A program made the translations under genes and the position numbers. 47,697 bases of DNA from the sequence record SRR20825019_2119. One strand, 5' to 3'. The notes under the pieces were generated by a model. It had not been told where the DNA came from and ran no database searches. It worked only from the letters and a program-made list of their open reading frames with translations. Shown piece after piece: positions 6,158 to 36,147 of this stretch. Position 1 is the first letter of the stretch; the number at the start of each line of letters is the position of its first letter.

Positions 6158-6221
6158 TCACGTCTTGCCAGGCGGGCGAGGCTCTGCCATTCCGGAAGGG
6201 GGCATCGGTGCGGGGGCAGCC

Positions 6222-6950: not shown

Positions 6951-6983
6951 TGCTCCCAAACGCGGGCTGATAATGATGGGCGC

Positions 6984-20220: not shown

Positions 20221-20709
20221 CTAGATCGGCAAGACCCGTGAGAACTTCACTGCTCCAAGCGAGAAGCTGCTCTCGATATGTGCCACACCATCGAGCTGGG
20301 TGAGCCTTTCGCGCAGAAAATGCTCATAGGATTCGAGATCGGCGCAGACGACGCGGAGCAGGAAATCGAACTGCCCGGTCATCAGATAGCACTCCATCAC
20401 CTCCGGCCAGCGACTGATCGCAGCGCCGAAGGCATCCAGGTTGCGCGCCCTTTGCTGCTCGAGCTTGATGGAAATGAAAACCGAGACCGGCAGGCCGACC
20501 GATTTCTGCTCGATATTAGCGCTATAGCCGGAAATGACGCCGTCCCGCTCGAGCTGCCGCAGCCGGCGCAGGCAGGGCGAGGCCGACAAGCCGACCTTGT
20601 CCGCCAGCGCCTGGACCGTCATGCGACCATCCTCCTGCAGCGCCCGGAGGAGCTTGCGGTCAATAGGGTCGATTCCGGACTTGGTGGTTTCCGCCTCATA
20701 TTGTGCCAA
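20221..20709 (-). CDS. Lrp/AsnC family transcriptional regulator
   Basis: IDPIDRKLLRALQEDGR, GLSASPCLRRLRQLE, ECYLMTGQFDFLLRV; TTG start uncertain. Confidence 0.92.
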   Translation of the reverse strand: MAQYEAETTKSGIDPIDRKLLRALQEDGRMTVQALADKVGLSASPCLRRLRQLERDGVISGYSANIEQKSVGLPVSVFISIKLEQQRARNLDAFGAAISRWPEVMECYLMTGQFDFLLRVVCADLESYEHFLRERLTQLDGVAHIESSFSLGAVKFSRVLPI

Positions 20710-20782
20710 TTTTGCCGATATCCTGCTCAGAGTGCGAGATTGGCGATCAGATTAGACGGAAATCACCTTTGAGCAAGGCGTA

Positions 20783-20795
20783 ATGTCAGACATAT
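20783..20795. promoter_or_regulatory. Putative FadR/GntR-type operator upstream of the E1-like gene
   Basis: ATGTC-A-GACAT palindrome; 12-nt TGTCAGACATAT is identical to 23255-23266. Confidence 0.6.
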
Positions 20796-20811
20796 CGATT
20801 GGAGGAGCGGT

Positions 20812-23181
20812 ATGGCAGGCAAGAGCATCGAGCGCATTGAAGCGATTGAGGCACTGACCAAAAAGTCTCTCTGGCTGGCAAGCTGGATGGTGCATCACGC
20901 CAATCACATCCGGCCCAATCCCGATGGGGTCAAGGTTGGCGGCCACCAGGCCAGCTCCGCCTCGATGGCTGCCATGCTGGCCACGCTCTATTTCGGCGTG
21001 CTGAAGCCCGAGGACCGGCTTGCCGTCAAACCGCATGCGGCGCCGATCTTCCATGCCATCCAGTATCTGATGGGCCGGCAGAGCCAGCAAAAGCTGATAG
21101 ATTTTCGCGCTTTTGGCGGCGCCCAATCCTACCCCTCCCGCACCAAGGATACCGAAGACGTCGACTTTTCGACCGGCTCGGTTGGGCTGGGCGTGGCGAT
21201 GACGGCCTTTGCGTCCATGGTGCAGGATTATGTGCGCGCCAAGGACTGGCCCGGAAAGGCGCGGCCCGAGGGGCGCATGATTGCGCTGGCCGGCGATGCC
21301 GAGCTCGACGAGGGCAATATCTATGAATGCCTGCTCGAAGGCTGGAAGCATGGCTTGCGCAATTGCTGGTGGATCATCGACTATAACCGCCAGAGCCTCG
21401 ATGGCGTGGTCCGCGAAGGGTTGTACGACCGCATCGAAGCGATCTTCAAGGCATTTGGCTGGAGGGTAGTCACCCTCAAATATGGCGCCCTGCAGCGAGC
21501 CGCTTTCGCCGAACTCGGTGGCGAGCGTCTCAAGGCCTGGATCGACGCCTGTCCCAACGATCTCTATTCGGCGCTGATGTTCCGGGGCGGTTCTGCCTGG
21601 CGCGAACGCCTCACCGACGAGATCGGCGACCAGGGTGATGTGTCTGCCCTGCTTGAGCGCCGCAGCGATGTGGACCTGGCGGCGCTGATGGCCAATCTGG
21701 GCGGGCATTGCGTAGAGAGCCTGCTCGACCAGTTCGAGAACGCCGGCACGGACGGGCCGACCGTCTTCATCAATTACACGGTCAAGGGCTGGGGTACGCC
21801 GCTGGCCGGCCACAAGGACAATCATGCGGGGCAGATGACCTCGGCCCAAATCGAGCAATTGCGGGCTTCTCACAAGATCCGCGACGGACATGAATGGGAT
21901 GTGTTCGAAGGGCTCGATCACGCCGACGCTCTGGCCGACTTTGTCAGAGATGTGCCGTTCAACACCGCCACATCCCGTCGCCTGACCGCCCCGGCAGTGC
22001 CCACTATCGGCCCGCAATACATCGGTACGGGCGCCACTTCCACTCAGGCCGCCTTCGGACGCATCCTCGACGCGATCGCAAAGACCGACAGCGAGATGGC
22101 GCGCCGGATCGTCTCGACTTCGCCGGACGTGACAGTCTCGACCGGGCTTGGAAGCTGGGTCAACCGGCGCAATCTGTTCGCGCGCAAGGAGACCGCCGAT
22201 CTGTTCCAGAACGAGGCGATCCCTTCAACCCAGAAATGGCGATTCACCCCCGACGGGCAGCATATGGAGCTGGGCATTGCGGAGATGAACCTGTTCCTGA
22301 TGCTGGGTGCGGCGGGCCTCAGCCACTCGCTGTTTGGCGAGCGCCTGTTGCCCATTGGCACACTCTACGATCCGTTCATTTCGAGGGGCCTGGATACCCT
22401 CAACTACGCCTGCTACCAGGACGCGCGTTTCCTGCTGGTGGGCACCCCATCCGGAGTATCCCTTGCAGGCGAAGGCGGCGCGCACCAGTCCATTGCCTCG
22501 CCACTGATCGGCATGTCACAGGATGGACTGGCCAGCTTTGAACCGGCCTTTGCCGACGAATTGTCGGTCATTATCGACTGGGCGTTTGACTATATGCAGC
22601 GCACGGGCGATGCGCGTCCGGACCTGGCCGACTGGCCGCGCGATGTCACCGGGGGTTCGGTCTATCTGCGCCTCTCCACGCGCACGCTGGAGCAGGTGCC
22701 GCGCGAGATGGCGCCACCGCTGGTCGATGACATCATTCGTGGCGCCTATTGGCTGCAAACACCAACACCGCAATGCGAAGCGGTCATTGCCTATCAGGGG
22801 GTTCTGGCCAGCGAAGCCATTGCGGCGGCAGCCCGTATCGGTGGTGACCGGCGCAATGTCGCCGTGCTGGCCGTGACCTCTGCGGACAGGCTCAATGCCG
22901 GCTGGCAGGCTGCCCAGCGCGCAAGGCTGCATGGTGACTTCGAGACCACCAGCCATATCGAGGCCCTGCTGCAAGACGTTCCGCATCGCGCGGGGCTGGT
23001 GACCGCCATTGATGCTCATCCCGCGACGCTGGGCTGGCTCGGCAGCGTGCTGGGGCATCGCACCATGGCGCTGGGTGTAGAGCATTTCGGCCAGACCGGC
23101 ACGGTTTCGGACCTCTACGGCCATTTCGGCATTGGCGCCGAGACGATCGAAACCGCCTGCCGGCAGGTCTTCGGGCGCTGA
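20812..23181 (+). CDS. ThDP-dependent 2-oxoacid dehydrogenase E1, homodimeric AceE/MdeB-like (transketolase fold)
   Basis: KVGGHQASSAS, SYPS, STGSVGLG, ThDP motif GDAELDEG...NRQSLD, ELGIAE, EGGAHQS, LGVEHFGQTG. Confidence 0.85.
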   Translation: MAGKSIERIEAIEALTKKSLWLASWMVHHANHIRPNPDGVKVGGHQASSASMAAMLATLYFGVLKPEDRLAVKPHAAPIFHAIQYLMGRQSQQKLIDFRAFGGAQSYPSRTKDTEDVDFSTGSVGLGVAMTAFASMVQDYVRAKDWPGKARPEGRMIALAGDAELDEGNIYECLLEGWKHGLRNCWWIIDYNRQSLDGVVREGLYDRIEAIFKAFGWRVVTLKYGALQRAAFAELGGERLKAWIDACPNDLYSALMFRGGSAWRERLTDEIGDQGDVSALLERRSDVDLAALMANLGGHCVESLLDQFENAGTDGPTVFINYTVKGWGTPLAGHKDNHAGQMTSAQIEQLRASHKIRDGHEWDVFEGLDHADALADFVRDVPFNTATSRRLTAPAVPTIGPQYIGTGATSTQAAFGRILDAIAKTDSEMARRIVSTSPDVTVSTGLGSWVNRRNLFARKETADLFQNEAIPSTQKWRFTPDGQHMELGIAEMNLFLMLGAAGLSHSLFGERLLPIGTLYDPFISRGLDTLNYACYQDARFLLVGTPSGVSLAGEGGAHQSIASPLIGMSQDGLASFEPAFADELSVIIDWAFDYMQRTGDARPDLADWPRDVTGGSVYLRLSTRTLEQVPREMAPPLVDDIIRGAYWLQTPTPQCEAVIAYQGVLASEAIAAAARIGGDRRNVAVLAVTSADRLNAGWQAAQRARLHGDFETTSHIEALLQDVPHRAGLVTAIDAHPATLGWLGSVLGHRTMALGVEHFGQTGTVSDLYGHFGIGAETIETACRQVFGR

Positions 23182-23253
23182 ACTGGCGCCCGAAACAACA
23201 CGCGCATTGAACCGGAAAAGGAGAAAGGCCGGACTTGCCAAGACGAAAATGAT

Positions 23254-23274
23254 TTGTCAGACATATGTCATATG
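23254..23274. promoter_or_regulatory. Putative FadR/GntR-type operator upstream of the peptide-type ABC operon
   Basis: TTGTCAGACATATGTCATATG: TGTC-N-GACA box plus overlapping GACATATGTC palindrome; lies at the expected -10 position after TTGCCA (23235-23240). Confidence 0.6.
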
Positions 23275-23397
23275 GCAGATTTGGGAACGATCTGCCGGAC
23301 CGCGGCGATAGCCGCGCCAAAGCAAAGTGACCAGACCCGAGGGGAAGGGCCTGGCGCATCAGGGAACGCCTACTGCTCTGCAACAAGGAGGGAGCTC

Positions 23398-24999
23398 ATG
23401 CATATCACACGGAAACTCGTCGCTGCGCTGGCCGTCGCCACCGCGCTGACACTGCCAGCAATGGCGCAATCGACCATTTCGGCACCCGGCCAGTCCACGA
23501 CCGGCACCTATATGGACTATATGAAGACGGTCTATGACCGCGCGACCTTTGCCGAGTTGCTGCAGGTGCCGATCGCGACCTTCGACAAGGAATTCGAACT
23601 CACGCCCATGGCGGCGGAGAGCTGGAGCCAGTCGGAAGATGGCCTCACCTGGACGTTCAAGCTGCGCGAGGGCCTGGGCTGGTCCGATGGTGAACCGCTG
23701 ACGGCCGAAGACTATGTTTTTGCCCTGCAGCGCGCCGCGACGACTGGCTATGACTTTGCCTGGTATTGGGACTTTGCCGGCGGCATCAAGGGCTGGAAGG
23801 AAGTCACCGAAGGCACTGCCGACGTGTCCACCCTGGGTCTGGTCGCTGTCGATGACCTGACCATTGAAGTCACTACCGTGGCACCCAAGCCCTATCTGCC
23901 CTCGGTCACCAGCCTGTGGTACCCCGTGCCCAAGCACAAGGTGGATGAGCTGGGCGACGACTGGGCCCTCAATGTGGACACCATCGTGTCCTCCGGCCCG
24001 TTCGAAATCGAGAGCTGGGAGAAGTCGAACAATTCGGTCGTCTTCACCAAGTCCGATACCTATACCGGTCCCTGGCAGGCCCAGATCGACCGTCTCGAAG
24101 TCGACCCCAGCCTTGGCGCGCCCGAAGTCGGGCTGCCGGCCTTCCTGGCCGGAGACGCAGACTATTCCTTCCTCAACACGGGGCAGGTTCCGGTCGCCAT
24201 GTCGGCTGACCCGGATGGCATTCGCCGCAATGCGGTCTTTGCCACCTCGTACATCTCCTATGATCTGGAATCCGAGCCCTTCAACAATGTCGATGTTCGC
24301 CGGGCCTTCTACTACGCGGTGGACCGGGACGAGCTGACCTCAACGGTTCTGCGGGACATTGCCATTCCGGCTGGCTCGATCCTGCCGCCCGGCTATCCTG
24401 GCTACAATCCCGATGTCGTGGCCCAGGCCACCTTCGATCCGGAAAAGGCCAAGCAGTTCCTGGCCGATGCAGGCTATCCGAACGGCGAAGGGTTCCCGGA
24501 GATCGAAATCTGGATCCGCGAAGAAGGCGGCTATAACGGCGCCATCGTGCCGGCCATGGCGCAATATCTGCAGGCCGAATTTGGCGAACATCTGGGGATC
24601 ACCGTCAATATCCGCCAGCTTCCCGGCGCGGACTGGATGGATGGTCTGCGGGGCGCGACGAACAACATCTTCATTGCCCCATATGAATACGACTATCTCG
24701 ATCCATCCAACTTCTACGGCATCTTCTACAATGGCGGGCGCCACAACTACTTCGTGCCCGAATATGATGCCCTGGTCGCCGAAGCGGATTCCGAAAGCGA
24801 TTGGGATACCCGCTACGCACTCTACGCCCAGGCTGAACAGGTGATGATCGATCAGGGGCTGATTGTGCCGCTGGTGCACCCGATCACCACGGCCATCATC
24901 TCCAGCGAGCTGGGTGGCGAAGCCTCAAATCCGAACGCACTGGGCTTCACCCCCTTGGATCGGCTCGGACACTACTTCTTCACCCACCTGACGAAGTAA
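23398..24999 (+). CDS. Peptide/nickel-family (family 5) ABC substrate-binding protein
   Basis: Signal peptide ending AMA; AESWSQSEDGLTWTFKLREG..WSDG, VSSGPF, AGYPNGEGFP; SD AAGGAGGG. Confidence 0.9.
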   Translation: MHITRKLVAALAVATALTLPAMAQSTISAPGQSTTGTYMDYMKTVYDRATFAELLQVPIATFDKEFELTPMAAESWSQSEDGLTWTFKLREGLGWSDGEPLTAEDYVFALQRAATTGYDFAWYWDFAGGIKGWKEVTEGTADVSTLGLVAVDDLTIEVTTVAPKPYLPSVTSLWYPVPKHKVDELGDDWALNVDTIVSSGPFEIESWEKSNNSVVFTKSDTYTGPWQAQIDRLEVDPSLGAPEVGLPAFLAGDADYSFLNTGQVPVAMSADPDGIRRNAVFATSYISYDLESEPFNNVDVRRAFYYAVDRDELTSTVLRDIAIPAGSILPPGYPGYNPDVVAQATFDPEKAKQFLADAGYPNGEGFPEIEIWIREEGGYNGAIVPAMAQYLQAEFGEHLGITVNIRQLPGADWMDGLRGATNNIFIAPYEYDYLDPSNFYGIFYNGGRHNYFVPEYDALVAEADSESDWDTRYALYAQAEQVMIDQGLIVPLVHPITTAIISSELGGEASNPNALGFTPLDRLGHYFFTHLTK

Positions 25000-25014
25000 C
25001 CCAGCGTTCCAACA

Positions 25015-25048
25015 GGCGCCTCCCGGGCATTCCCAGTCGGGAGGCGCC
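25015..25048 (+). other. Intercistronic stem-loop after SBP gene (mRNA stabiliser/attenuator)
   Basis: GGCGCCTCCCG-N12-CGGGAGGCGCC 11-bp perfect stem, no T-tract. Confidence 0.6.
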
Positions 25049-25069
25049 ACAAGTTTCGGGGACCAGCAC

Positions 25070-26824
25070 ATGGCATTGGTAGAAATCGCCGATCTCAAGG
25101 TCAGCTTTCGCCAATATGGCGGAACCATCGACGCGGTGCGCGGCATCAGCTTTTCGGTCAATGAAGGGGAAAGCCTCGGCATTGTGGGGGAAAGCGGCTC
25201 GGGCAAGTCGGTGAGCTGCAGTGCCCTGCTCCGCCTGCTGCCGGCAATGGCTGAGGTCAGCGCCACGAAGCTCGAGCTCGATGGCATCGATGTGAGCAAG
25301 GCGCGCAAGGACGATCTCGCCCGGCTGCGCGGCCGCTCTGCTGCCATGATCTTTCAGGACCCGATGACGGCGTTCGATCCGGTCTTCACCATCGGGCACC
25401 AGATCGCCGAGACCATCCAGTCCCATCGCAATGCCTCTAGGCGCGACGCGCTCAAGGAAGCCGAAGACCTGCTGCTGCGCGTCGAGATCAAGAACGCCAG
25501 CGACGTCCTCAACTATTTCCCGCATCAGCTTTCCGGCGGCATGCTGCAACGCGCGATGATCGCCATGGCCCTCTCCTGCCGGCCCAAGGTGCTGATTGCC
25601 GACGAGCCGACCACTGCACTCGACGTCACCATTCAGGCGCAGATCCTGCAGCTCATCAAGAAGGTGCAGGCCGAGTTCGGCATGGCGCTGATCATGATTA
25701 CCCATGACCTGGGCGTGATTGCCGAAACGGTCGACCGCGTACTGGTGATGTATCGCGGCGAGGTCATGGAAGAAGGGCCGGTGCAACAAATCTTCGATGC
25801 GCCGCAGCACGCCTATACCAAGCAGCTCCTGGCCAGCCTGCATGCGAGTTTCGAGCCCTCGCGCGGCAGCGACAACAAAACTCCGGCGCTTGAACTCAAG
25901 GGGCTGGCCAAGGCCTACCGCATCCGCCGCCGGCGCGGGCTGTTCACCGATTATTCCGACTTCCACGCCGTGCGCGAGGTCAATATCGCCCTGCCCAAGA
26001 ACCGCATTGTCGCCATTGTGGGCGAAAGTGGCTCGGGCAAGACCACGACCGGCATGATGGCCATGCGGCTGACCGATGTGAGCCGTGGCCAGATCCTGGT
26101 GGATGGGCAGGACATTTCCGCCCTCTCGCCTGAGGCTCTGAAGCCCTGGCGCAAGAAGATGCAGGTCGTTTTCCAAGACAGCTATTCGGCGCTCGATCCG
26201 ATGATGACGCTTACCCAGACCATTGCCGAACCGCTGCATATTCATAGCATTGGCAGTGCCAGGGAGCAGGAAGAGACGGCGCTGGACTGGCTGGAGCGCG
26301 TCGGCCTCGACCGATCCTATGCCAATCGCTATCCGCACGAGCTTTCCGGCGGCCAGCGGCAGCGTGTGGCCATTGCCCGCGCGCTGGTTCTCGAGCCCGA
26401 TGTGCTGGTTGCCGACGAGCCGACGTCAGCGCTCGACGTCACTGTCAAGGCGCAGATCATCGGGCTTTTGAAGAAGCTGCAGGCCGAAATGGGCCTGTCG
26501 ATCCTGTTCATCAGCCATGACCTGTCGACGGTAAAGTCCCTGACCGACAGTGTCGTGGTGATGTATCGCGGGCGCGTGGTCGAGGAAGCGCCGACCGAAC
26601 GGATCTTCTCGGATCCGCAGCACCCCTATACCCGCGCCCTGCTCGACGCGGTTCCGGCAACCAATCCCAGGAACAGGCGCGAGCGTACGTTCCTGACTGC
26701 CGAGCAGATCGCTGCCCAGACCCCGCGCCTGACCACGCTGCAAGCGGGCATTGCCCCGCACAGCGACCCGCAACTTGTCGCCATCGCCCCGGACCACCGG
26801 GTCGAGGCCTATGTGACCAATTGA
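25070..26824 (+). CDS. Dipeptide/oligopeptide ABC ATP-binding protein with two fused NBDs
   Basis: Two Walker A motifs ([16 protein letters not shown]), two LSGG signatures, two ADEPT motifs. Confidence 0.94.
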
Positions 26825-26837
26825 GGGAGAGCGTCTG

Positions 26838-27767
26838 ATGCTCGGCTATGTCCTGCGCCGCCTCGTTTCGGCTGCCTTCACCTTCATCGCGGTGTCGCTC
26901 ATTATCTTCCTGATGATGCATGCCGTGCCCGGCGGCCCGTTCGACGCCAATGACATGCCGGTCTCCGAAGCCGTGCGCGCCAAGCTGATGGCCCAGCTCG
27001 GGCTGGATCAGCCGCTCTATGTCCAGTACCTCAAATATATGTGGGGCGTGCTGCATTTTGATTTCGGCGTGCCCTATCAAAGCCCGGGCGAGAGCGTGTT
27101 GCAGCTCCTCTCCCGTGCCTGGGTGCCGAGCCTTGTGCTGGGCGGGCTCGGGGTACTCATCGGCGCCCCACTCGGCATCCTGCTGGGTATGGCAGCCGCA
27201 CTGAACCGCAATAGCTGGATCGACTATCTGGCCTCAGCAGTGGCCACAATCGGTCTCACCATTCCGGTGTTCGTCACCTCCATGCTGCTGATCCTGGTTT
27301 TTGCCGTCTGGCTCAAATGGCTGCCCGCCAGTGGCTGGCCCAATCCGGAACGCTGGATATTGCCGATCATCGCCTATGCGGCGATACCCGTGGCCACCTA
27401 TGCCCGCTACACGCGTTCGGCCATGCTCGACACCATGAGCCGGCCCTTCGTCACCGTGCTGCGCGCCAAGGGGCTCTCAGAACGGCGCATCGTCTTCCAG
27501 CATGTGCTGCGCAATTCGGCCATTCCGCTGGTCACCGTGTTCCTGCCCATGTTCATCGGAACCGCCACCGGCTCGATCTTTGTCGAGGCCATGTTCCGCG
27601 TGCCGGGCCTGGGTGCCTATTTTGTCTCCTCCATCGAGACGCGCGACTATCCGCTGGAAATGGCGCTGATGCTGATGATCACCTTCATGTACTGCATCGC
27701 CTATCTTCTCTCAGACATCGTCTATGCGCTGATCAATCCGCGTATCCGCGTGGGAGGCGCAGAATGA
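26838..27767 (+). CDS. Peptide ABC permease (OppB/DppB-like)
   Basis: PGGPF, GLDQPLYVQY, RAKGL, RDYPL. Confidence 0.93.
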   Translation: MLGYVLRRLVSAAFTFIAVSLIIFLMMHAVPGGPFDANDMPVSEAVRAKLMAQLGLDQPLYVQYLKYMWGVLHFDFGVPYQSPGESVLQLLSRAWVPSLVLGGLGVLIGAPLGILLGMAAALNRNSWIDYLASAVATIGLTIPVFVTSMLLILVFAVWLKWLPASGWPNPERWILPIIAYAAIPVATYARYTRSAMLDTMSRPFVTVLRAKGLSERRIVFQHVLRNSAIPLVTVFLPMFIGTATGSIFVEAMFRVPGLGAYFVSSIETRDYPLEMALMLMITFMYCIAYLLSDIVYALINPRIRVGGAE

Positions 27768-28660
27768 CCGACACCATCGTGACGCCAGCAGTCGAAGCCG
27801 CCCCGCCCCGCCAGCGCAGCCCACTCTGGTTTGCCTGGCAGCGCTTCCTGTCCAACAAGGCCGCCGTCGCCGGCGGCATCGTGATGAGCATCCTGATCCT
27901 GATGGCGATCTTTGCGCCGCTGATCACCCCGGTGCCCCCCGAGGCGCAATTGTTCCTCACCCAATCGTTGGCCTTTCCCTCGGCCGAGCATTGGTTCGGC
28001 GTGGATAATCTGGGCCGCGATTTCTATACGCGCATCGTTTATGGCGCCCGCGTCTCGCTCTCCATCGGCTTCATCGCCGCGGGTTTTTCGGTGCTGATCG
28101 GCATTCCGCTGGGGGCCCTTGCCGGTTATTTCGGCGGCCGGACCGACTGGATCATCATGCGCATCATCGAATTGTTCTCGGTGGTGCCGCCGCTCCTGGC
28201 GGCCATGCTGCTGGGCACCCTCATTCGGGGTGGCTATATGTCCATTGTCGCGATTGCTGCGCTGTTCGGCTGGGTGCAGGTGTGCCTGCTGGTTCGTGCC
28301 CAGGTGAAGGCCTTCCGCGAAAAGGAATTCGTCCGGGCAGCACAGGCGCTGGGTGCCTCGCCCTGGTACATCATCCGCCGCCATCTCATTCCCAATTCGA
28401 TCAGCCCGATCATTGTCGGCTTCGTGCTGGCCATCCCGCTCGCCATGATGCTCGAAGCCTCGCTCAGCTTCCTCGGCATCGGCGTGCCCCCGCCCACCGC
28501 CACATGGGGCCAGATGATCAATGAGGGCATAAATTTCATGTTTTATTACTGGCACCTGGCCGTGTTCCCCACGGCAGCCCTGGCCATCACCGTGCTCGCC
28601 ACCTCGCTCTTCGGCGACGGATTGCGCGATGCCCTCGACCCCACCCTGAAAGGCCGCTGA
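27764..28660 (+). CDS. Peptide ABC permease (OppC/DppC-like)
   Basis: HWFGVDNLGRD, EASLSFLGIG, GDGLRDALDP; ATGA overlap. Confidence 0.93.
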   Translation: MTDTIVTPAVEAAPPRQRSPLWFAWQRFLSNKAAVAGGIVMSILILMAIFAPLITPVPPEAQLFLTQSLAFPSAEHWFGVDNLGRDFYTRIVYGARVSLSIGFIAAGFSVLIGIPLGALAGYFGGRTDWIIMRIIELFSVVPPLLAAMLLGTLIRGGYMSIVAIAALFGWVQVCLLVRAQVKAFREKEFVRAAQALGASPWYIIRRHLIPNSISPIIVGFVLAIPLAMMLEASLSFLGIGVPPPTATWGQMINEGINFMFYYWHLAVFPTAALAITVLATSLFGDGLRDALDPTLKGR

Positions 28661-28663
28661 ACC

Positions 28664-29863
28664 GTGTCCGACAATCTCGCCCGGCACTTCCTCCTCCGTG
28701 AGGATGTCACTTTCCTCAATCACGGTTCTTTCGGCGCATGCCCGCGCCCGGTCTTCGAGACTTATCAGGGCTGGCAGCTCGAACTGGAGCAGGAGCCAGT
28801 GGAGTTCCTGGGCCGTCGCCTGCACGATTTGTTGCGCGTGCCCCGTGAGGCCCTGGCGGCCGAGCTGGGATGTGACTCCAACGACATTGTCGGCGTGCCC
28901 AATGCCACCAATGGCCTCAACATCGTCGCCCAGTCGCTCGATCTCAAACCCGGCGACCAGATCCTCACCACCGACCACGAATATTCGGCGCTGGAAAAAA
29001 CCTGGGCGTATGTCTGCCGCAAGACCGGCGCCGAGATCGTCGTGGTCAAGGTCCCGATGCCGCTGGTCAGCGAGGCTGCGTTCACCCAGACCATCATCGA
29101 TGGCATGACCAAGCGCACCAAGGTGCTGTTTCTCAGCCACATCACCTCGCCCACGGCCCTCTTGTTCCCGATCGAGAACGCCATTGCCGAGGCGCGCAGG
29201 CGCGGCATCTGGTCAGTGATCGATGGCGCCCATACGCCGGGCCATATCAAGCTCGACCTCGATTCGATCGGGGCTGACTTCTATGCGGGCAATTGCCACA
29301 AATGGATGATGACCCCCAAGGGATCGGCCTTCCTCCATACGCGCCGCGAGATGCAGGGCCTGCTCAACCCGCTGGTCATCAGCCATGGCTGGACCAAGGA
29401 TTCCAAGGAACCCGGGGCCAAGGGCGCCTTCGGCAATTCCCCCTATATCGACGAGATTGAAATAAGGGGCACGCGCGACCCCGCGCCCTGGCTGACCGTT
29501 CCGGCCGCCATTGCATTTCGCCAGGAGAATGACTGGTGGGCCATTGCCGAGCATTGCCATGCCCTGGCGCAGGACACGGCTCGGCGGCTCGGTGAGTTGA
29601 CCGGTCTTGCGCCGCTCAGCAGCGCGGCGTTCTGCGCCCCGCAAATGGTCGCCATGCCCATTCCGGAATGCGACACGCTCGCGATTCACACCACGCTGTT
29701 CGAGAAGTACGGGATCGAGATCCCCGTCTTCAAATGGCAGGAGACCTGCATCGTGCGCCTGTCGGTGCAGGGCTATAATTCGCGCCCGCAAATGGACCGA
29801 CTGATCGCGGCACTCACCGAATTGCTTGATCTCACGCAGGCGCCGATGGCAGCGCAAGGCTGA
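28664..29863 (+). CDS. Class V PLP-dependent enzyme (isopenicillin-N-epimerase / Egt2 / L-cysteine desulfhydrase-like)
   Basis: FLNHGSFGACP, NAT, SHITSPTA, IDGAH, GNCHKW (PLP lysine), GTRD. Confidence 0.85.
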   Translation: MSDNLARHFLLREDVTFLNHGSFGACPRPVFETYQGWQLELEQEPVEFLGRRLHDLLRVPREALAAELGCDSNDIVGVPNATNGLNIVAQSLDLKPGDQILTTDHEYSALEKTWAYVCRKTGAEIVVVKVPMPLVSEAAFTQTIIDGMTKRTKVLFLSHITSPTALLFPIENAIAEARRRGIWSVIDGAHTPGHIKLDLDSIGADFYAGNCHKWMMTPKGSAFLHTRREMQGLLNPLVISHGWTKDSKEPGAKGAFGNSPYIDEIEIRGTRDPAPWLTVPAAIAFRQENDWWAIAEHCHALAQDTARRLGELTGLAPLSSAAFCAPQMVAMPIPECDTLAIHTTLFEKYGIEIPVFKWQETCIVRLSVQGYNSRPQMDRLIAALTELLDLTQAPMAAQG

Positions 29864-29928
29864 CAAGTGCGCCAATATGTGGTGTGAGTGGCCAATAAAG
29901 GTCTGCCGCACCTGGAGGAAAGGGCCCC

Positions 29929-30657
29929 ATGAGTCGGGAAGCCGCCCTAAGCTATCTGGAACCGCTCGAGAACCGCACACGCAATGTGGCGGTGCTGGAC
30001 GCGCTTGCCGAAATGGTTGAGCGCGCCGGCCTCAAGATCGGCGACCGCCTGCCGCCCGAGGTATCGCTGGCGGCCTCGCTTGGCGTTGGCCGTTCCACCA
30101 TTCGAGAAGCCCTCAATCGCTGGGAAGGCCTGGGCATTATTCGGCGCCGGCGTGGTGATGGGACCTATCTGGCTGCGCGCGTGCAGACCTCTCGCGGCCT
30201 CGTGCCGACCATGGTGCGACTGGAAGGCGAGGCTTTGCTGCGGCTGCTCGAAATTCGTCGCACGCTGGAAAACGATGTGGTGCGCAAAGCCACCCAGCAC
30301 GCCACAACCAAGCAACGTGCGGAAATCGCGCGGCTATGCGACGTGCTTCTGGCCGACGTCAATTCCGGCCGCCCGTGGCGCAAGGCGGACCACGCCTTTC
30401 ACAACGCCATCTATGATGCTTCGGGCAATCCGATGTATGGGCAGATTCTGGTCAATCTGGACCATGCGCTGGAGCGCGGGGACATCTCGCCCTTCAATCG
30501 CGACGCCTTTGGCCTCGATTCCTTTCCGCTGCATCGTGACCTGGCCGACGCCATTGTCGCCGAGAATGCCGACCTGGCGGTGGCCGCCATCAATGGCATT
30601 CTGGATTCGGTCGAGTACGAGGTCCGGGCCATCATCGCGGACGGCAAGCTGGTTTAG
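29929..30657 (+). CDS. GntR family regulator, FadR subfamily (FCD domain)
   Basis: GDRLPPE, LGVGRSTIREAL, RRRGDGTYL wHTH; ADHAFHNAIYDASGNP FCD. Confidence 0.93.
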   Translation: MSREAALSYLEPLENRTRNVAVLDALAEMVERAGLKIGDRLPPEVSLAASLGVGRSTIREALNRWEGLGIIRRRRGDGTYLAARVQTSRGLVPTMVRLEGEALLRLLEIRRTLENDVVRKATQHATTKQRAEIARLCDVLLADVNSGRPWRKADHAFHNAIYDASGNPMYGQILVNLDHALERGDISPFNRDAFGLDSFPLHRDLADAIVAENADLAVAAINGILDSVEYEVRAIIADGKLV

Positions 30658-31460
30658 GCCAGCTGCCATCGCTCCGACCCCGGCAGGGGCATGCGCTCGA
30701 CTTCGCGCAGCACTTCGATCATGCCCGCGACATTGCGCTCGGCTATAAGCCGCCCCTTATCGGCGCTCCCCAAGGCGGCTTCACCCACCGCGCCGGATGG
30801 ATTGATGTCCGAGGCAACCCAGGCATAGACATGCCCGAAGGCGCCGGTGGGCCGGAGATACTTGAACGCCTGCTCGTCCCGTGCGGCGATGGAGGGGAAG
30901 TTCTCGGCCCGGTCCATATCGACGAGGTCGGGGCGGAAATGCAGGATGAGGGACGTCTCCGCGTCGCCGCCATGGATGCCGTGGCGCCGTTCCAGATCGC
31001 TCAGAACGCCTTCTGGTGCGCCGAAGCGCCAACCGCTTTTGACGGCCAGCATGCCGGCCGCGACGCGCAGTTCACGCGCGACGATGCCCATGATCTCTTC
31101 ATTGCCACCATGGGAATTGACGAAGATGATCTTCTTCACCCCTGCCCGCGCGACCTCCAACCCGATCTGGGTCCAGGCGTCGATCAGATTTGTGGCCTTG
31201 TGCGTGATGGTGCCCTTGGCCCAGATATGCTCGTTGGACTTGCCCACTGCCTGCACGGGCAGGATGCGGATATCGAGGTCGGCCGGGGCATGCTCGGCCA
31301 GCAGGTTCATCATTGATTGATTGATGATGGTGTCTGTGCCCACCGGCAAATGCGGACCGTGCTGCTCCACCGCCGCGATGGGCAGGATGGCGATGGTCTT
31401 GTCCGGATCGAGATTGTCGAATTCGCGGGCAGCGAAATCGGTCCACCAGATCTTTCTCAT
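30654..31460 (-). CDS. Creatininase family amidohydrolase
   Basis: EQHGPHLPVGTD, SNEH, NSHGGN, HGGDAETS. Confidence 0.92.
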   Translation of the reverse strand: MRKIWWTDFAAREFDNLDPDKTIAILPIAAVEQHGPHLPVGTDTIINQSMMNLLAEHAPADLDIRILPVQAVGKSNEHIWAKGTITHKATNLIDAWTQIGLEVARAGVKKIIFVNSHGGNEEIMGIVARELRVAAGMLAVKSGWRFGAPEGVLSDLERRHGIHGGDAETSLILHFRPDLVDMDRAENFPSIAARDEQAFKYLRPTGAFGHVYAWVASDINPSGAVGEAALGSADKGRLIAERNVAGMIEVLREVERMPLPGSERWQLA

Positions 31461-31471
31461 GGTCTTTTTCC

Positions 31472-31861
31472 TCAGGCGGGGCCGGCGGCGATGGCTTCAA
31501 TCTCGACCACGAATTCGGGCCGGGCAAAGCCGGAAACGATCATCAGGGTCGAGGCCGGATAGGGTTTGGCAAACAGCGCATTGCGCACCGCCATATAGTC
31601 CGCCAGGTACTCCCGGCCGGTGACGTAGGCGTTGATCCGCACGATATCGGCGAGCTTCAACCCCGCCTCGGCGAGAATGGCGGCGATGTTATCGAAGCAG
31701 AGCCTTGTCTGACCCGCACAATCCGGTGGGATCATCGCATTGTCGTCAATGCCCAATTGCCCCGAGCAGAACACGAGCTTTTGCCCCTCGGGCACAACCA
31801 CACCGTGGCTATAGGGGGCGAATGGGGGATGGATGGTGGGCGGGGCGAGGGGGGTGAACAT
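31472..31861 (-). CDS. RidA/YjgF family protein
   Basis: YSHG, SGQLG, PASTL, VEIEAIA. Confidence 0.9.
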   Translation of the reverse strand: MFTPLAPPTIHPPFAPYSHGVVVPEGQKLVFCSGQLGIDDNAMIPPDCAGQTRLCFDNIAAILAEAGLKLADIVRINAYVTGREYLADYMAVRNALFAKPYPASTLMIVSGFARPEFVVEIEAIAAGPA

Positions 31862-32069
31862 GCACACTCATTGATTTTGAAGGGAATGCTAGAGGTCGAC
31901 GCGCTCCATGACCAGCCCAACAGCCTCCCGCTGCACGCATGGCAGGCATTCTTGCATTTTGCCTATTTTTTAGCTTCACAGATGCGGCTGCATGGCGAAA
32001 GGTACAACAAGGGCGGCCCCAGCCGTCAGAGCAACAAGCCGCGGCGAGGGATCGCGGTACAGGGAGCGC

Positions 32070-33071
32070 ATGATGCAGATTTCGACCAAGACCATTCTTC
32101 TGGCCGCGCTGGCGCTGGCCAGCAGCCCAGCGGCGGCGCAGGAACTCGACGCCGTCACCTTCGCAACCAACTGGCTCGCCCAGGCCGAACATGGCGGCTA
32201 CTATCAGGCCATTGCCGATGGCACCTATGAAGAATACGGCCTCGACGTCACCGTGATGCAAGGTGGGCCGCAGTCACCGGGCCGGCCGATGCTGGTGAGC
32301 GGCGGCGTGCAGTTCTACATGGGCGGCGCGTCGGGCGCGATCAACGCGGTCAAGGAAGAGATCCCGACCATCACGCTGGCGGCGATCTTCCAGAAGGATC
32401 CGCAGGTCCTGATGTCGCATCCGGGCCAATTCGAGTCCTTCCCGGAGTTGGCCGGAGCCTCGAAATACATTCTGGGTGCGGACGGGTTCACCTCGTACTT
32501 CTCCTGGATGAAGACCGAGTGGCCAGAGTTCGTCGAAGAGAAATACGAGCCCTATCAGTTCAACCCGGCCTCGTTCCTGGCCGACGACATGGCCATCCAG
32601 CAAGGCTATCTGACCTCCGAACCGCTTTCCATTGAGCGCGAGGCCGGTTTTGCGCCCGATGTCTGGCTGCTGGCCGACCAGGGCTACACACCCTACTCCA
32701 CCACGATTGAAGCGATGAAGCCCTGGGTGGACGAGAACCCCGACATTGCCAAGCGCTTTGTCGAGGCCTCGATCATTGGCTGGTACAACTATCTTTACGG
32801 CGACAATGCCGCGGCCAATGAGCTGATCAAGGCCGACAATCCTGAAATGACCGACGACCAGATCGCCTATGGCATCGCCAAGATGAAGGAGTACGGTATC
32901 GTCGTTTCCGGTGACGCCGAGACCCAGGGCATCGGTTGCATGACCGACGCGCACTGGGCCGAATTCTACGACAAGATGGTGGAAGTGGGTGTCTATGAGG
33001 CGGGCCTCGACATCACCACGGCCTACACCACCGAATATGTCTGCCAGGGCCTCGGCATGGACCTGATGTAA
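32070..33071 (+). CDS. NMT1/THI5-like ABC substrate-binding protein
   Basis: Signal peptide; NWLAQAEHGGYYQA, GLDV, AAIFQKDP, QGYLTSEP. Confidence 0.88.
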   Translation: MMQISTKTILLAALALASSPAAAQELDAVTFATNWLAQAEHGGYYQAIADGTYEEYGLDVTVMQGGPQSPGRPMLVSGGVQFYMGGASGAINAVKEEIPTITLAAIFQKDPQVLMSHPGQFESFPELAGASKYILGADGFTSYFSWMKTEWPEFVEEKYEPYQFNPASFLADDMAIQQGYLTSEPLSIEREAGFAPDVWLLADQGYTPYSTTIEAMKPWVDENPDIAKRFVEASIIGWYNYLYGDNAAANELIKADNPEMTDDQIAYGIAKMKEYGIVVSGDAETQGIGCMTDAHWAEFYDKMVEVGVYEAGLDITTAYTTEYVCQGLGMDLM

Positions 33072-33085
33072 CCAACGACCACGAT

Positions 33086-33111
33086 CGGTGCGGGCAATCC
33101 TGCCCGCACCG
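33086..33111 (+). other. Intercistronic stem-loop after SBP gene
   Basis: CGGTGCGGGCA-atcc-TGCCCGCACCG 11-bp perfect stem followed by a short CTTT. Confidence 0.6.
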
Positions 33112-33138
33112 CTTTGACCCTAGACCGGGTTTTGTATT

Positions 33139-33969
33139 TTGACTGATATTCTCGAAGCGGCCCCCAACACGGCCGAAACCGCTCCCGAGCGCACCGTTGT
33201 GTCGATGCGCAATGTGAGCAAGCTATTCTCCAACGGTACGCTGGCCCTCAAGGATATGAGCCTCGACGTGCGGCGCGGAGAGTTCCTCAGCCTTCTCGGC
33301 CCGTCGGGCTGTGGCAAGTCCACCGCCTTGCGCATCATCGCCGGGCTGGGTGCTGCCTCATCGGGCTCCATCGACTGGCCCAGTTCGCGCATCAACGCCA
33401 AGGGTCTGCCCGAGGGCGATGTTGGCTTCGTCTTCCAAGAGCCGACGCTGATGCCCTGGGCGAGCGTGTTTGACAATGTCTATCTGCCGCTGCGCCTCAA
33501 TGGCATGAGCAAGTCGGGCGCCCGGCCCCGCATCATGGAAGCCCTAGCCTCGGTTGGCCTGTCCGATTTCGAGAAATCCTATCCGCGCGAGCTGTCGGGC
33601 GGCATGAAGATGCGCGTATCCATTGCAAGGGCATTGGTCACCAAGCCGCGCCTGCTACTGATGGATGAGCCCTTCGCGGCGCTAGATGAAATCACCCGGC
33701 AAAAGCTCAATGATGACGTCCTTCGCCTTTGGCGCGAGACCGGGATCACGGTGATATTCGTGACCCATTCGGTGTTCGAAAGCGCCTTCCTCTCCAATCG
33801 GATCGTGGTCATGCGCGCCCGGCCCGGCCAGGTCTGCGCCGATCTTGCCATCGAGACCACGGGCGAGCGCGACGCCAATTATCGGACCTCCGAAGAATAT
33901 CGCGCGACCACCGACCGGGTGTCACGCGCCCTTCAGGAAGCCATTATGCTGGGAGCGCAGGGACAATGA
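33139..33969 (+). CDS. NitT/TauT-type ABC ATP-binding protein
   Basis: [41 protein letters not shown] start uncertain. Confidence 0.93.
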   Translation: MTDILEAAPNTAETAPERTVVSMRNVSKLFSNGTLALKDMSLDVRRGEFLSLLGPSGCGKSTALRIIAGLGAASSGSIDWPSSRINAKGLPEGDVGFVFQEPTLMPWASVFDNVYLPLRLNGMSKSGARPRIMEALASVGLSDFEKSYPRELSGGMKMRVSIARALVTKPRLLLMDEPFAALDEITRQKLNDDVLRLWRETGITVIFVTHSVFESAFLSNRIVVMRARPGQVCADLAIETTGERDANYRTSEEYRATTDRVSRALQEAIMLGAQGQ

Positions 33970-34832
33970 CCGACGCCGTCCAGACCTCGAACATTTCCGA
34001 AGCCGGGACCGACAGCGCAGTAGCCATCGCTGTGGCGCGTACCGGCACAGTCGAAAAGATCCTGCGCATTGTCATTCCGTTCATGATGGTGGCCCTGGCC
34101 ATCGGGCTCTGGCAATTGCACATCACCGTCAATGAGGTGCCGCGCTATATCATGCCGGCGCCAGGCGATGTGATCGCCGCGCTCTATACCGATTGGGGCA
34201 CGCTCTCCCCCTCGCTTCTCGTGACGCTGCGCATCACCTTCCTAGCGCTCGGCATAGCGCTGGTCGGTGGCGTTGGGCTGGCCATCATCCTGGTCCAGAG
34301 CAAGTGGATTGAGCTGGCGATCTTCCCCTTCGCCGTTATCCTGCAGGTGACACCGATGATCGCCATCGCACCCCTGCTGATCATCTACATGCCCGACACG
34401 CAATCGGCCCTGCTGACCTGCGCGTTTGTCGTCGCCTTTTTCCCGATCCTCTCCAACATGGTGGCGGGGCTCAAAAGCGTTGATCACAACCTGCTCAATC
34501 TCTTCGAGCTTTATGGTGCCAACCGCTGGCAGACGCTGCTGTATTTGAAACTCCCGGCCTCCCTGCCCTACTTCGCTGCGGGTCTGCGCATTGGCGGCGG
34601 TCTCTCACTGATCGCAGCGGTGGTGGCCGAGTTTGCGGCCGGTTCTGCGGGCAAGGGTGCGGGCCTGGCTTTCCGCCTGCTAGAATCGGGTTATCGCCTC
34701 AATTATCCGCGCCTTTACGCGGCGCTGATCCTGTTGATGGTCACCGGCGTTGCCATCTTTGCGGCAACCTCGCTGATCGCCTGGCTATTGCTGCATCGCT
34801 GGCACGAAAGCGCCATGAAGCGGGAGAATTGA
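33966..34832 (+). CDS. NitT/TauT-type ABC permease
   Basis: IMPAPGDV, QVTPMIAIAPL, LPASLPY, AVVAEF; TM segments. Confidence 0.92.
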   Translation: MTDAVQTSNISEAGTDSAVAIAVARTGTVEKILRIVIPFMMVALAIGLWQLHITVNEVPRYIMPAPGDVIAALYTDWGTLSPSLLVTLRITFLALGIALVGGVGLAIILVQSKWIELAIFPFAVILQVTPMIAIAPLLIIYMPDTQSALLTCAFVVAFFPILSNMVAGLKSVDHNLLNLFELYGANRWQTLLYLKLPASLPYFAAGLRIGGGLSLIAAVVAEFAAGSAGKGAGLAFRLLESGYRLNYPRLYAALILLMVTGVAIFAATSLIAWLLLHRWHESAMKREN

Positions 34833-34833
34833 G

Positions 34834-36147
34834 GTGAGCCTCACCATTCCCGCTGATGGCCATTATGTGCTGGCCAATGCCGCTGTGCCCGTAGCGCTCA
34901 TGGATGAACCAGCGTCTGGCGCTTTGCGACGCGTCGACATCACGATTGCAGATGGCGCTATCGCCGCCATTGACCCGGCCGGTTCGGCCAGCCCGCACCG
35001 GCGGATCGACCTGCGCGACGACATCGTCCTCCCGGCCTTTGTCGACCTGCACACGCATCTCGACAAGGGCCACATCTGGCCCCGCAAGCAGAACCCGGAC
35101 GGCACCTGGATAGGGGCATTGCGGGCTGTGCTGGAAGATCGTGAGGCGAATTGGGCCTCAGACGATGTTGAGCGCCGCATGGATTTCTCCTTGCGCTGCG
35201 CCTATGCCCACGGCACCGCTGCCATCCGCACCCATCTCGATATGGCGCCACCTCAGCATGAGATCAGCTGGGACGTGCTCGAGGCCATGCGCGAGCGCTG
35301 GGCCGGGCGGATCGAATTGCAGGCAGCGGGCCTGATGGGACCCGACACCATACTCGATGATTCTGCGCTCCGTGCCGTGGCGGCCCGTACCAAGGCCGCC
35401 GGCGGCATTCTGGGCGGCTCGACGGCCGTGCATCCGGAAAACCCGACCATCATGCGCAAGCTGGTCGAAATCGCTGGTGAACTCGGGCTCGATATCGACC
35501 TGCACACAGATGAATCGCCAGACCCGGCAGCCAATGCGCTCGAATGCCTGGCCGATGCCGTCATCGAAACCGGCTTTTCAGGCTCGGTTGTCGCCGGGCA
35601 CTGCTGCTCGCTGGCTGTGCAGGACGCGGACACGGCAAAACGCGTGATCGACAAAGTCGCCCGGGCCGGCATTGCCGTGGTCTCGTTGCCCATGTGCAAT
35701 ATGTATCTGCAGGACCGGGACAATGCGTCCGGCGTGCGCACGCCCCGCTGGCGCGGCGTGACTTTGCTCAACGAGTTGAAGGCCGCCGGCGTCCCGGTGG
35801 CGATTGCCTCGGACAATACGCGCGACCCCTTCTATGCCTATGGCGACCTGGACGGTTTTGAGGTTCTTCGCGAGGGCGCGCGGATCCTGCATTTCGATCA
35901 TCCACAGACTGACTCCTTTGCCTGGACGCGCTCGGTTTCGGCCGATCCGGCCGCCATCGCCCGGTCTGCTTTCACCGGCGAACTCAAAGCCGGCGCCGCT
36001 GCCGATCTGGTGCTGTTCAAGGGCCGCAACTGGACCGAGTTGATGTCGCGCCCGCAGGCCGACCGCATCGTGATCCGCGCCGGCAGGGCCATCGACACCA
36101 CCCTGCCCGACTACCGTGAACTTGACGACCTGATGGGACCATCATGA
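34834..36147 (+). CDS. Cytosine deaminase-like amidohydrolase (possibly pterin deaminase)
   Basis: DLHTHLDK (HxH), LHTDE, GHCCSL, ASDNTRDPF. Confidence 0.85.
   Translation: MSLTIPADGHYVLANAAVPVALMDEPASGALRRVDITIADGAIAAIDPAGSASPHRRIDLRDDIVLPAFVDLHTHLDKGHIWPRKQNPDGTWIGALRAVLEDREANWASDDVERRMDFSLRCAYAHGTAAIRTHLDMAPPQHEISWDVLEAMRERWAGRIELQAAGLMGPDTILDDSALRAVAARTKAAGGILGGSTAVHPENPTIMRKLVEIAGELGLDIDLHTDESPDPAANALECLADAVIETGFSGSVVAGHCCSLAVQDADTAKRVIDKVARAGIAVVSLPMCNMYLQDRDNASGVRTPRWRGVTLLNELKAAGVPVAIASDNTRDPFYAYGDLDGFEVLREGARILHFDHPQTDSFAWTRSVSADPAAIARSAFTGELKAGAAADLVLFKGRNWTELMSRPQADRIVIRAGRAIDTTLPDYRELDDLMGPS

Follow-up and report, generated by a model that had tools for sequence, protein, structure and literature searches.

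The stretch of DNA considered here comprises 47,697 nucleotides of the sequence record SRR20825019_2119, in the following called the window, and contains between positions 20221 and 30657 a cluster of eight genes (Table 1). An E1-like thiamine diphosphate (ThDP) protein is encoded divergently from a regulator of the Lrp/AsnC family and upstream of the genes for an ATP-binding cassette (ABC) importer, composed of a substrate-binding protein (SBP), a fused ATPase, and the permeases B and C. These are followed by the genes for a class-V enzyme dependent on pyridoxal 5'-phosphate (PLP) and for a GntR-type regulator. On balance, the data argue slightly in favor of a modular cluster, in which a portable Lrp-E1 pair has been grafted onto an importer/PLP operon run by GntR, with the same operator at both parts in the lineage of the window and with E1 decarboxylating a 2-oxoacid made by the PLP enzyme. 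The catabolic cluster is probably co-regulated.

The gene calls in the window were checked by profile scans with Pfam and NCBIfam. Order and orientation of the eight genes are those given in an initial annotation of this DNA, and only the starts of SBP and permease C had to be corrected. The open reading frame (ORF) of SBP extends from 23254 to 24999, but the ATG at 23398 is the likelier start; it is preceded by the strong ribosome-binding site AAGGAGGGAG, and the N terminus beginning there is signal-peptide-like. As read from the sequence, permease C starts with an ATG that overlaps the stop codon of permease B, and the PLP gene begins 3 bp past the stop codon of this last permease, as had been annotated before. 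The ATPase gene contains an internal repeat of 813 nt. The E1 gene had been described as lacking E2 and E3 genes nearby, and neither a 2-oxoacid_dh nor a Biotin_lipoyl domain was indeed present among the 42 ORFs of the window that were scanned. The divergent regulator contains an HTH_AsnC and an AsnC_trans_reg domain and reached a score of 120.7 versus a cutoff of 233 in the Lrp equivalog model, so that it is not Lrp proper. The nearest relatives of E1 are Devosia proteins with 76 to 97% identity and the PLP loci agree with this; judged from these relationships, the source organism is a Devosia.

Table 1. Genes and control elements of the cluster in the window
Feature	Position	Strand	Evidence or remark
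Lrp/AsnC-family regulator, divergent from E1	20221-20709	-	Pfam AsnC_trans_reg 6.5e-26, HTH_24 3.1e-19
Lrp/E1 divergent control region, 102 bp	20710-20811		Upstream elements conserved among Devosia loci
Operator-like palindrome copy 1, aATGTCaGACATat	20784-20795		Ends 16 bp ahead of the E1 ATG
E1-like ThDP protein, 789 aa	20812-23181	+	Pfam Transketolase_N, PDH_E1_M, Transketolase_C_1
E1-to-SBP spacer, 216 bp	23182-23397		No terminator-like site on the + strand
Operator-like palindrome copy 2, ATTTGTCAGACATATGTC	23252-23269		About 130-145 bp ahead of the SBP ATG
Family-5 SBP, Opp/Dpp type	23398-24999	+	SBP_bac_5 1.4e-76
Fused two-domain ABC ATPase, DppD/DppF-like	25070-26824	+	Two ABC_tran and two oligo_HPY stretches (Pfam)
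Permease B	26838-27767	+	BPD_transp_1 3.4e-38
Permease C	27764-28660	+	OppC_N and BPD_transp_1
Class-V PLP enzyme	28664-29863	+	Aminotran_5 4.8e-36
GntR regulator, FadR subfamily (winged helix-turn-helix and FCD)	29929-30657	+	GntR 2.1e-15, FCD 1.1e-21

Both parts of the cluster carry the same palindrome. The exact 12-mer TGTCAGACATAT occurs at 20784 in front of E1 and at 23255 (23255 to 23266) in front of SBP, and these are its sole exact copies in the window. When the two spacers were subjected to 20,000 mononucleotide shuffles, a common 12-mer of any kind appeared in 38 of them. The palindrome on the SBP side, ATTTGTCAGACATATGTC, is strikingly conserved across orders. Operators of the FadR subfamily are palindromes with a GT-N-AC core, and the form conserved here is TGTC-A-GACA. 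A position weight matrix (PWM) was constructed from eight distinct versions of the SBP-side palindrome and contains no E1-side sites. A site with a PWM score of at least 12 was located upstream of the SBP gene in all 48 loci with a GntR gene but in none of the three ABC loci without one. Because the presence of the operator matches the presence of GntR, the palindrome was assigned to the FCD-GntR, which is the presumed binder, as a repressor, of both copies.

For the E1 side, the 150 nt upstream of E1 were scanned, with 2,560 random 150-nt windows as background (99th percentile, 9.4). Copy 1 at 20784 reached a PWM score of 14.9. Among 25 loci with an E1 adjacent to the ABC genes, 14 had a strong site (11.9 to 23.6), three had a weak one (8.1), and eight had none, whereas no strong site was found in the 11 E1 loci that lack the ABC block, with 5.4 as the highest score. 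The core on the E1 side is retained while its flanks vary between Devosia subclades with 78 to 97% E1 identity, and elsewhere it has decayed to related half-palindromes. On the scale of whole genomes, the closest relative (G024, 4.0 Mb) has the looser form WTGTCAGACAW exactly twice, each time at the locus considered here. Four further relatives contain three to six copies, always including both sites of the locus, while the reversed control pattern gave zero to four matches. The additional copies in these four genomes were not conserved between them, were mostly low-scoring or inside ORFs, and yielded no further members of the regulon. An operator-like palindrome common to both units in the lineage of the window is in line with the regulon link postulated in the initial annotation.

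Similar sequences were noticed at other positions. TGTCCGACA at 28665 to 28673 matches the operator core and is located at the very beginning of the PLP coding sequence, inside the codons for V-S-D-N, while the corresponding codons read TGTCAGACA in the loci L034 and L050; the match could reflect a coding constraint on a conserved N terminus or be an internal site. At 33035 to 33046 on the - strand, TGGCAGACATAT differs by one mismatch from the 12-mer and is located at the end of a gene for an NMT1-like SBP, just ahead of the next ABC gene. The near-perfect palindrome ATATTTGTCTGACAATAT was found between divergent ORFs at L098:1990-2012 and in L099 (contigs C3 and C4 of G090), duplicated on two small contigs, and may serve a different GntR-type regulator as its operator.

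The importer, PLP, and GntR genes form one conserved unit. Eighty PLP-anchored loci were collected from contigs of one genome per species, and the proteins of the window were mapped on them by tblastn. The block SBP-ATPase-permease B-permease C-PLP-GntR recurred in Devosia, in Tabrizicola and other metagenome-assembled genomes (MAGs) of the Rhodobacterales, and in Martelella, Kaistia, Bosea, and Mesorhizobium, which means at least six named genera. Clustering of all flanking ORFs of these loci gave no further family common across the genera, neither a peptidase nor a second enzyme, and the synteny beyond the unit (ferrochelatase, NicO/DUF1007, LysR) is specific for Devosia. A unit without a peptidase or second enzyme argues that the PLP enzyme attacks the imported compound directly. 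Four reductive variants (L029, L030, L034, and L040) at the ancestral Devosia position beside ferrochelatase have lost the ABC genes and GntR but kept the PLP gene; L029 has also retained E1, directly ahead of the PLP gene, while the other three have the PLP gene only. These variants suggest that the PLP enzyme has an importer-independent role as well. A soil metatranscriptome (X1; share, 0.08), available as contigs, was the sole RNA run with any part of the stretch. In its contigs, pieces from relatives with 90 to 95% identity spanned the SBP/ATPase, permease B/permease C, and permease C/PLP junctions, and none spanned E1/SBP; contigs cannot show transcripts or their levels.

How firmly E1 belongs to this unit was evaluated by co-occurrence. 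Among 121 Devosiaceae genomes, E1 was present in 53 and the PLP gene in 52, with both in 43, E1 only in 10, the PLP gene only in 9, and neither in 59. The two genes were not more than 12 kb apart in 34 of the 43 genomes with both, and 32 of these 34 pairs had the layout of the window; the remaining nine genomes had them far apart or on separate contigs. An E1 was found in the flank of 27 of the 80 PLP-anchored loci, 23 times upstream as in the window, three times downstream of GntR, and once in L029. A partial, convergent E1 at the end of a contig (L058) comes in addition to these 27. G239 likewise contains all of Lrp-E1-ABC-PLP-GntR in one cluster, with an E1 and a PLP enzyme 65% and 60% identical to those of the window.

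From 36 E1 sequences, a quick maximum-likelihood tree was calculated and midpoint-rooted; a careful search did not finish. L005 with its internal stop codon, L084 and L085 as duplicates of L006 and L016, and matches with fewer than 700 aligned residues were left out. The Devosia E1s grouped in a single clade, the sister of which was an E1 from a Tistrella plasmid. Those of L051, L053, and L054, three loci with Lrp-E1 downstream of GntR, nested within the stand-alone E1s of the Rhodobacterales, with values of 96 to 100 in the Shimodaira-Hasegawa-like approximate likelihood ratio test (SH-aLRT). These separate positions in the tree indicate that the adjacency arose at least twice. The co-conservation on which the initial annotation made its interpretation depend reaches well beyond the window, and the genes were joined at least twice independently, but it is not strict, as outlined below for eight genomes with a PLP gene.

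Outside this cluster, Lrp-E1 is a portable pair that occurs in many different contexts. E1 homologs with 51 to 95% identity were present in 132 of 401 sampled genomes of Alphaproteobacteria (131 of 400 without the unpublished genome G369). Ten plasmid contexts were opened, one of which (L092) had a record without annotation. Lrp was adjacent to E1 in eight of the nine annotated ones, including a Rhodococcus plasmid with a 39% identical E1, and the other neighbors of these plasmid-borne pairs were unrelated to one another. Of the 132 genomes with a match, the contexts of 60 were fetched, and Lrp was found within 6 kb of E1 in 23 of them. A trigger factor gene was located not more than two genes downstream of E1 in 11 of the 60 contexts, followed in eight of these by clpP. 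In eight of the 60, an enzyme of amino acid degradation was at most two genes away from E1, or the ABC/PLP cluster itself was there. These were proteins of the Cys_Met_Meta_PP family in L108, L142, and L146, of the PALP family (fold-type II) in L110, alanine dehydrogenases in L159 and L161, a class-IV aminotransferase in L106, and the ABC/PLP cluster in L109. In Ruegeria pomeroyi DSS-3 and L108, a divergent Lrp gene, a methionine gamma-lyase gene, and a gene of the same E1 family have the layout of mdeR-mdeA-mdeB, so that the analogy to this system drawn in the initial annotation holds by context. The loci with a methionine gamma-lyase beside the E1 homolog are L001 and L108, and that with a PLP enzyme of the DSD1 family, which follows E1 in Microbulbifer, is L091. 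In this minority of contexts, the recurring theme is an enzyme that yields pyruvate or 2-oxobutyrate.

Other E1 contexts are worth recording. In L103 (5324-11041), Lrp, E1, and the E1-alpha and E1-beta genes of a branched-chain keto acid dehydrogenase (BCKDH) type follow in this order, which hints at a possible relationship of Lrp with BkdR and at the possible sharing of an E2. L140 (3575-9684) has E1 beside APH, IF-2B, and Aldolase_II genes, which we take to resemble mtnK, mtnA, and mtnB of methionine salvage. Alanine dehydrogenase genes directly follow E1 at L159:4728-5855 and L161:8385-9503. Synteny of E1, trigger factor, and ClpP was seen in L133, L134, L138, L139, L141, L144, L148, and L162 (53 to 58% E1 identity), and tblastn retrieved no Lrp in any of these eight loci. 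A malonyl-CoA decarboxylase gene is located upstream of E1 in four of them (L134, L139, L141, and L144) and additionally in L137.

Alternatively, the two units may be functionally unrelated neighbors. A general Lrp-E1 module for pyruvate or 2-oxobutyrate would have entered in a Devosia ancestor and been inherited in place, with the E1-side palindrome as a leftover or weak secondary site, and the importer/PLP/GntR operon would function on its own. Such an explanation is possible but not probable. The Devosia E1s form one clade, so that most of the adjacency counts trace to a single event, and the Fisher test for the co-occurrence of E1 and PLP in the Devosiaceae (p of 3e-14) is a statistic that ignores shared ancestry. 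Further observations pointing in this direction are that the importer/PLP unit is kept in genomes without any E1 and that Lrp-E1 is also found beside integrases, transposases, and toxin-antitoxin genes, with most E1 contexts unconnected to PLP enzymes (eight of 60 near such genes or other amino-acid-degrading enzymes versus 11 of 60 near trigger factor). At least 3.7 kb upstream of SBP was covered in 22 PLP-anchored loci without E1; the other loci of the 80 were too short or differently arranged. Eight genomes with a PLP gene but no adjacent E1 had no E1 anywhere, while two positive controls matched once each. E1 was also absent from two Martelella genomes and located elsewhere in the genome in Kaistia, Mesorhizobium BR1-1-16, and one Rhodobacterales MAG. 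The E1-side operator, finally, is absent or degenerate in 11 of the 25 ABC-adjacent loci, among them all three Tabrizicola-type loci and G239.

On the other hand, unrelated neighbors would not readily explain a second, independent joining with another layout in the Tabrizicola lineage, nor the retention of the E1-side core across Devosia subclades despite the divergence of its flanks. Moreover, the two palindrome copies in the genome of G024 are exactly these two sites, and L029, which has lost ABC and GntR, still has E1 immediately ahead of the PLP gene. Genomes that keep the importer/PLP unit without E1, together with loci lacking the E1-side operator, indicate that E1 is an optional add-on and not the core of the pathway. 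The interpretation of the initial annotation is partly supported: it holds with respect to co-conservation, common palindrome, and mde-like context, but E1 is dispensable for the importer/PLP unit and Lrp-E1 a generic portable pair.

The E1 protein itself retains the features of a ThDP enzyme. A profile of 11 family members aligned with the PDH (pyruvate dehydrogenase) E1 of Escherichia coli (1l8a/2qta) with an E value of 5e-59, positions 16 to 784 of the profile corresponding to residues 82 to 854. The ThDP/Mg motif GDA-E...N is present, with G161-D162...N192 invariant in the 11 sequences, as are H45, H75, Y107, H338, E486/E491, and H558, which align with conserved positions of the E. coli E1. 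In the aceE model TIGR00759, the E1 of the window scored 174.2 bits versus a cutoff of 859.9. The alignment opens at residue 82 of the E. coli protein with about 15 residues ahead of it, and the N-terminal E2-docking segment is missing. PMC10849603 describes residues 1 to 58 of the E. coli E1 as the helices that bind E2's peripheral subunit-binding domain (PSBD). Since the E1 family is always without these N-terminal docking helices, it may not be a conventional subunit of a complex.

In public records, the family of about 790 aa is named "transketolase" or "DXP synthase N-terminal domain-containing"; it occurs in about one in three Alphaproteobacteria sampled and, in addition, on plasmids of actinobacteria. 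It is tempting, albeit doubtful, to regard it as a free-standing, portable keto acid sink that has no tethered E2 or borrows lipoyl domains transiently. Such a sink could be recruited by PLP-lyase and dehydrogenase operons to dispose of pyruvate or 2-oxobutyrate, and in Devosia be placed under dual Lrp and GntR control with an importer for an unrecognized natural-product nutrient, for instance an S-, Se-, or O-substituted amino acid.

Two interrupted E1 genes were encountered. In the closest named relative, L005:2148-4517 (G024:C23:264680-267046), a TGA replaces the TGG of the window at the near-invariant W698, which is either a sequencing error or a nonsense mutation that costs the protein its 91 C-terminal residues. 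In G014:C3:2663178-2672175, E1 is present in two adjoining pieces covering residues 8 to 483 and 479 to 780 of the query, which suggests a frameshift; the PLP gene of this genome is located 5.6 kb from E1 on the opposite strand.

The reaction of the PLP enzyme can be narrowed down to some extent. The Schiff-base lysine, K213 in NCHKW, was invariant in 12 orthologs, while position 324 in FCAPQ was C, S, or R; this position was matched to the catalytic cysteine of SufS by likeness of the motifs and not by alignment, a correspondence that we assume. NCBIfam scores were far below the cutoffs for SufS (100.8 versus 475.1), CsdA (76.9 versus 607), and EgtE (TIGR04343, 41.9 versus 400). Among solved structures, Egt2 was the best relative in a sequence search (7e-30), with C-DES at 7e-20. 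An AlphaFold model (pLDDT [predicted local distance difference test], 79.9; pTM [predicted template modeling score], 0.83) had Egt2 as its nearest fold, with a template modeling (TM) score of 0.83 to 0.85 at 24 to 25% identity, followed by LolT with a TM score of 0.80 and then SufS, and the sequence search ranked these relatives in the same order. A search of the ESM Atlas with the enzyme returned only generic "Aminotransferase class V" clusters, and tblastn against plasmids retrieved relatives of not more than 41% identity, from Ralstonia and one Sinorhizobium. From these comparisons, the enzyme belongs to a separate subfamily of the non-desulfurase class-V branch, for which a lyase reaction is the favored reading. 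Carbon-sulfur (C-S) lyase chemistry and an S-conjugate as the substrate, considered in the initial annotation, have no basis other than the 22 to 25% identity to Egt2 and LolT.

The PLP enzyme may instead not be a 2-oxoacid-forming lyase but an epimerase like CefD, or a decarboxylating or cyclizing enzyme like PvdN or LolT. It would then act on the amino acid head group of an imported peptide-like compound, with E1 active in another step or sharing the regulation only. The level of identity of the solved relatives and the presence of a Mannich cyclase (LolT) and of desulfurases among them mean that the lyase reaction is not established, which counts against the proposed pathway. LolT is among the nearest solved folds, the sub-threshold NCBIfam matches are scattered over SufS, CsdA, PvdN, and EgtE, and true binders of oligopeptides and dipeptides are the closest relatives of the SBP. 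A non-lyase is nevertheless regarded as unlikely: the best single match of the enzyme is the C-S lyase Egt2, relatives of E1 recur beside PLP or NAD enzymes yielding pyruvate or 2-oxobutyrate, and the operon is not accompanied by a conserved peptidase or second enzyme.

The SBP has OppAIV (4gl8, 5e-50) and DppE (8ay0) as its nearest solved relatives. The aspartate of its YDYLDP motif aligns with the D of (G/S)DYxDP in both, and the corresponding aspartate in OppA and DppA binds the amino group of the ligand. Sub-threshold NCBIfam matches to NikA/B/C/D/E and to components of the staphylopine system Cnt might point to an import of a metal or metallophore of the nickel or opine type, with the PLP enzyme handling the chelator. 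This is most improbable, since the SBP reached only 90 bits for NikA and 48 bits for CntA, compared to 161 and 151 bits for peptide binders, its best solved relatives are peptide binders, and conservation of a metal-related gene along with the block is not seen outside Devosia.

Returning to the modular cluster, its operation can be envisaged as follows. Module A (23398 to 30657) would be a self-contained uptake-and-cleavage operon with its own FCD-type GntR repressor, predicted to act on ATTTGTCAGACATATGTC ahead of the SBP gene. Since the module is not accompanied by a peptidase or any other enzyme, what it imports should probably be amino-acid-like, with a free alpha-amino and carboxyl group, and be attacked by the PLP enzyme directly. 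This enzyme would most likely perform an elimination, with pyruvate or 2-oxobutyrate as the 2-oxoacid released along with NH3. Module B (20221 to 23181), directly upstream, would consist of Lrp and the orphan E1 of the homodimeric type. Because there is no terminator between the modules and the same palindrome is located at the E1 promoter, derepression of E1 is predicted to accompany that of the importer and the PLP enzyme. The derepression by release of GntR would add to the control by Lrp, and E1 is predicted to decarboxylate the 2-oxoacid coming from the PLP enzyme. That this enzyme is a lyase and that its product is the substrate of E1 is what we infer from the arrangement.

The design of the cluster resembles that of the mde system, built from different parts. 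MdeB of Pseudomonas putida is reported to be an E1 homolog specific for alpha-ketobutyrate (bioRxiv 10.1101/2022.07.13.499613). Both systems would combine a divergent regulator of the Lrp family with a PLP enzyme for an amino acid substrate and with an AceE-like orphan E1 that has no E2 and E3 genes next to it. In contrast to mde, where the PLP enzyme is a gamma-lyase of Cys/Met metabolism, that of the window is an Egt2/LolT-like class-V enzyme, encoded 5.5 kb downstream of E1 and behind a dedicated ABC importer, and a second regulator (FCD-GntR) with a common operator is added. No methionine gamma-lyase gene was present among the ORFs of the window scanned.

The pair PdhR-aceE of E. coli likewise has an FCD-GntR and a palindrome of the GT-N-AC type ahead of the gene for a homodimeric-type E1, but the GntR of the window scored 51.7 bits versus a PdhR cutoff of 330 bits, the operator sequence differs, E1 is devoid of the N-terminal PSBD-binding segment, and neither aceF nor lpd follows. 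The PLP enzyme has the class-V fold, the PLP lysine, and the lack of a conserved persulfide-forming cysteine in common with Egt2, LolT, and the cyanobacterial cystine lyase C-DES. Its length falls short of that of the deposited Egt2 chains (501 aa) by about 100 residues, and it is encoded in a catabolic importer operon, not in a biosynthetic one. The importer agrees with Opp/Dpp systems in its SBP_bac_5 protein, two BPD_transp_1 permeases, one of them with OppC_N, and oligo_HPY ATPase domains. It deviates in the order SBP-ATPase-permeases, the fusion of the two ATPases into one protein, and the coupling to a PLP enzyme rather than to a peptidase, and all equivalog models were far under their cutoffs.

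To our knowledge, a PLP lyase together with an orphan E1 under Lrp has been known until now only from the mde operon. If the modular reading is true, this pairing would be a widespread modular design of the Alphaproteobacteria with interchangeable PLP enzymes and not a curiosity of Pseudomonas, and the version in the window would bring in its own importer as well as a second repressor. The cluster is also a handle on two large unannotated families, the 790-aa E1 and the subfamily of class-V "aminotransferases". Its sharply defined operator offers direct access to the inducer: either the substrate or the product formed from it is expected to be the compound that lifts GntR off ATTTGTCAGACATATGTC. 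No existing concept would be overturned, and most of the interest would lie in the substrate.

Concerning the surroundings, a megablast search of the region against plasmids gave word fragments of E1 and the ABC ATPase only and no syntenic plasmid. Downstream of the cluster, genes for a creatininase-family amidohydrolase (30654-31460, -) and RidA (Ribonuc_L-PSP, 31472-31867, -) are convergent to GntR, with a 4-bp overlap where the creatininase-family ORF and that of GntR end. Both genes face a divergent operon (31992-38137) for an NMT1-like SBP, ABC components, an amidohydrolase, an FAD-binding oxidase, and a flavodoxin-like protein. RidA and the creatininase-like protein were considered as members of the pathway and rejected: they are kept in the six closest relatives only and belong to this neighboring divergent operon. 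On the other side, the regions 86-2128, 2197-5568, and 6018-12282 of the window contain the end of a second Opp-type ATPase and a second SBP_bac_5 protein, then PutA, and then a tetrapyrrole methylase run of five genes with a nitrite/sulfite-reductase-like gene.

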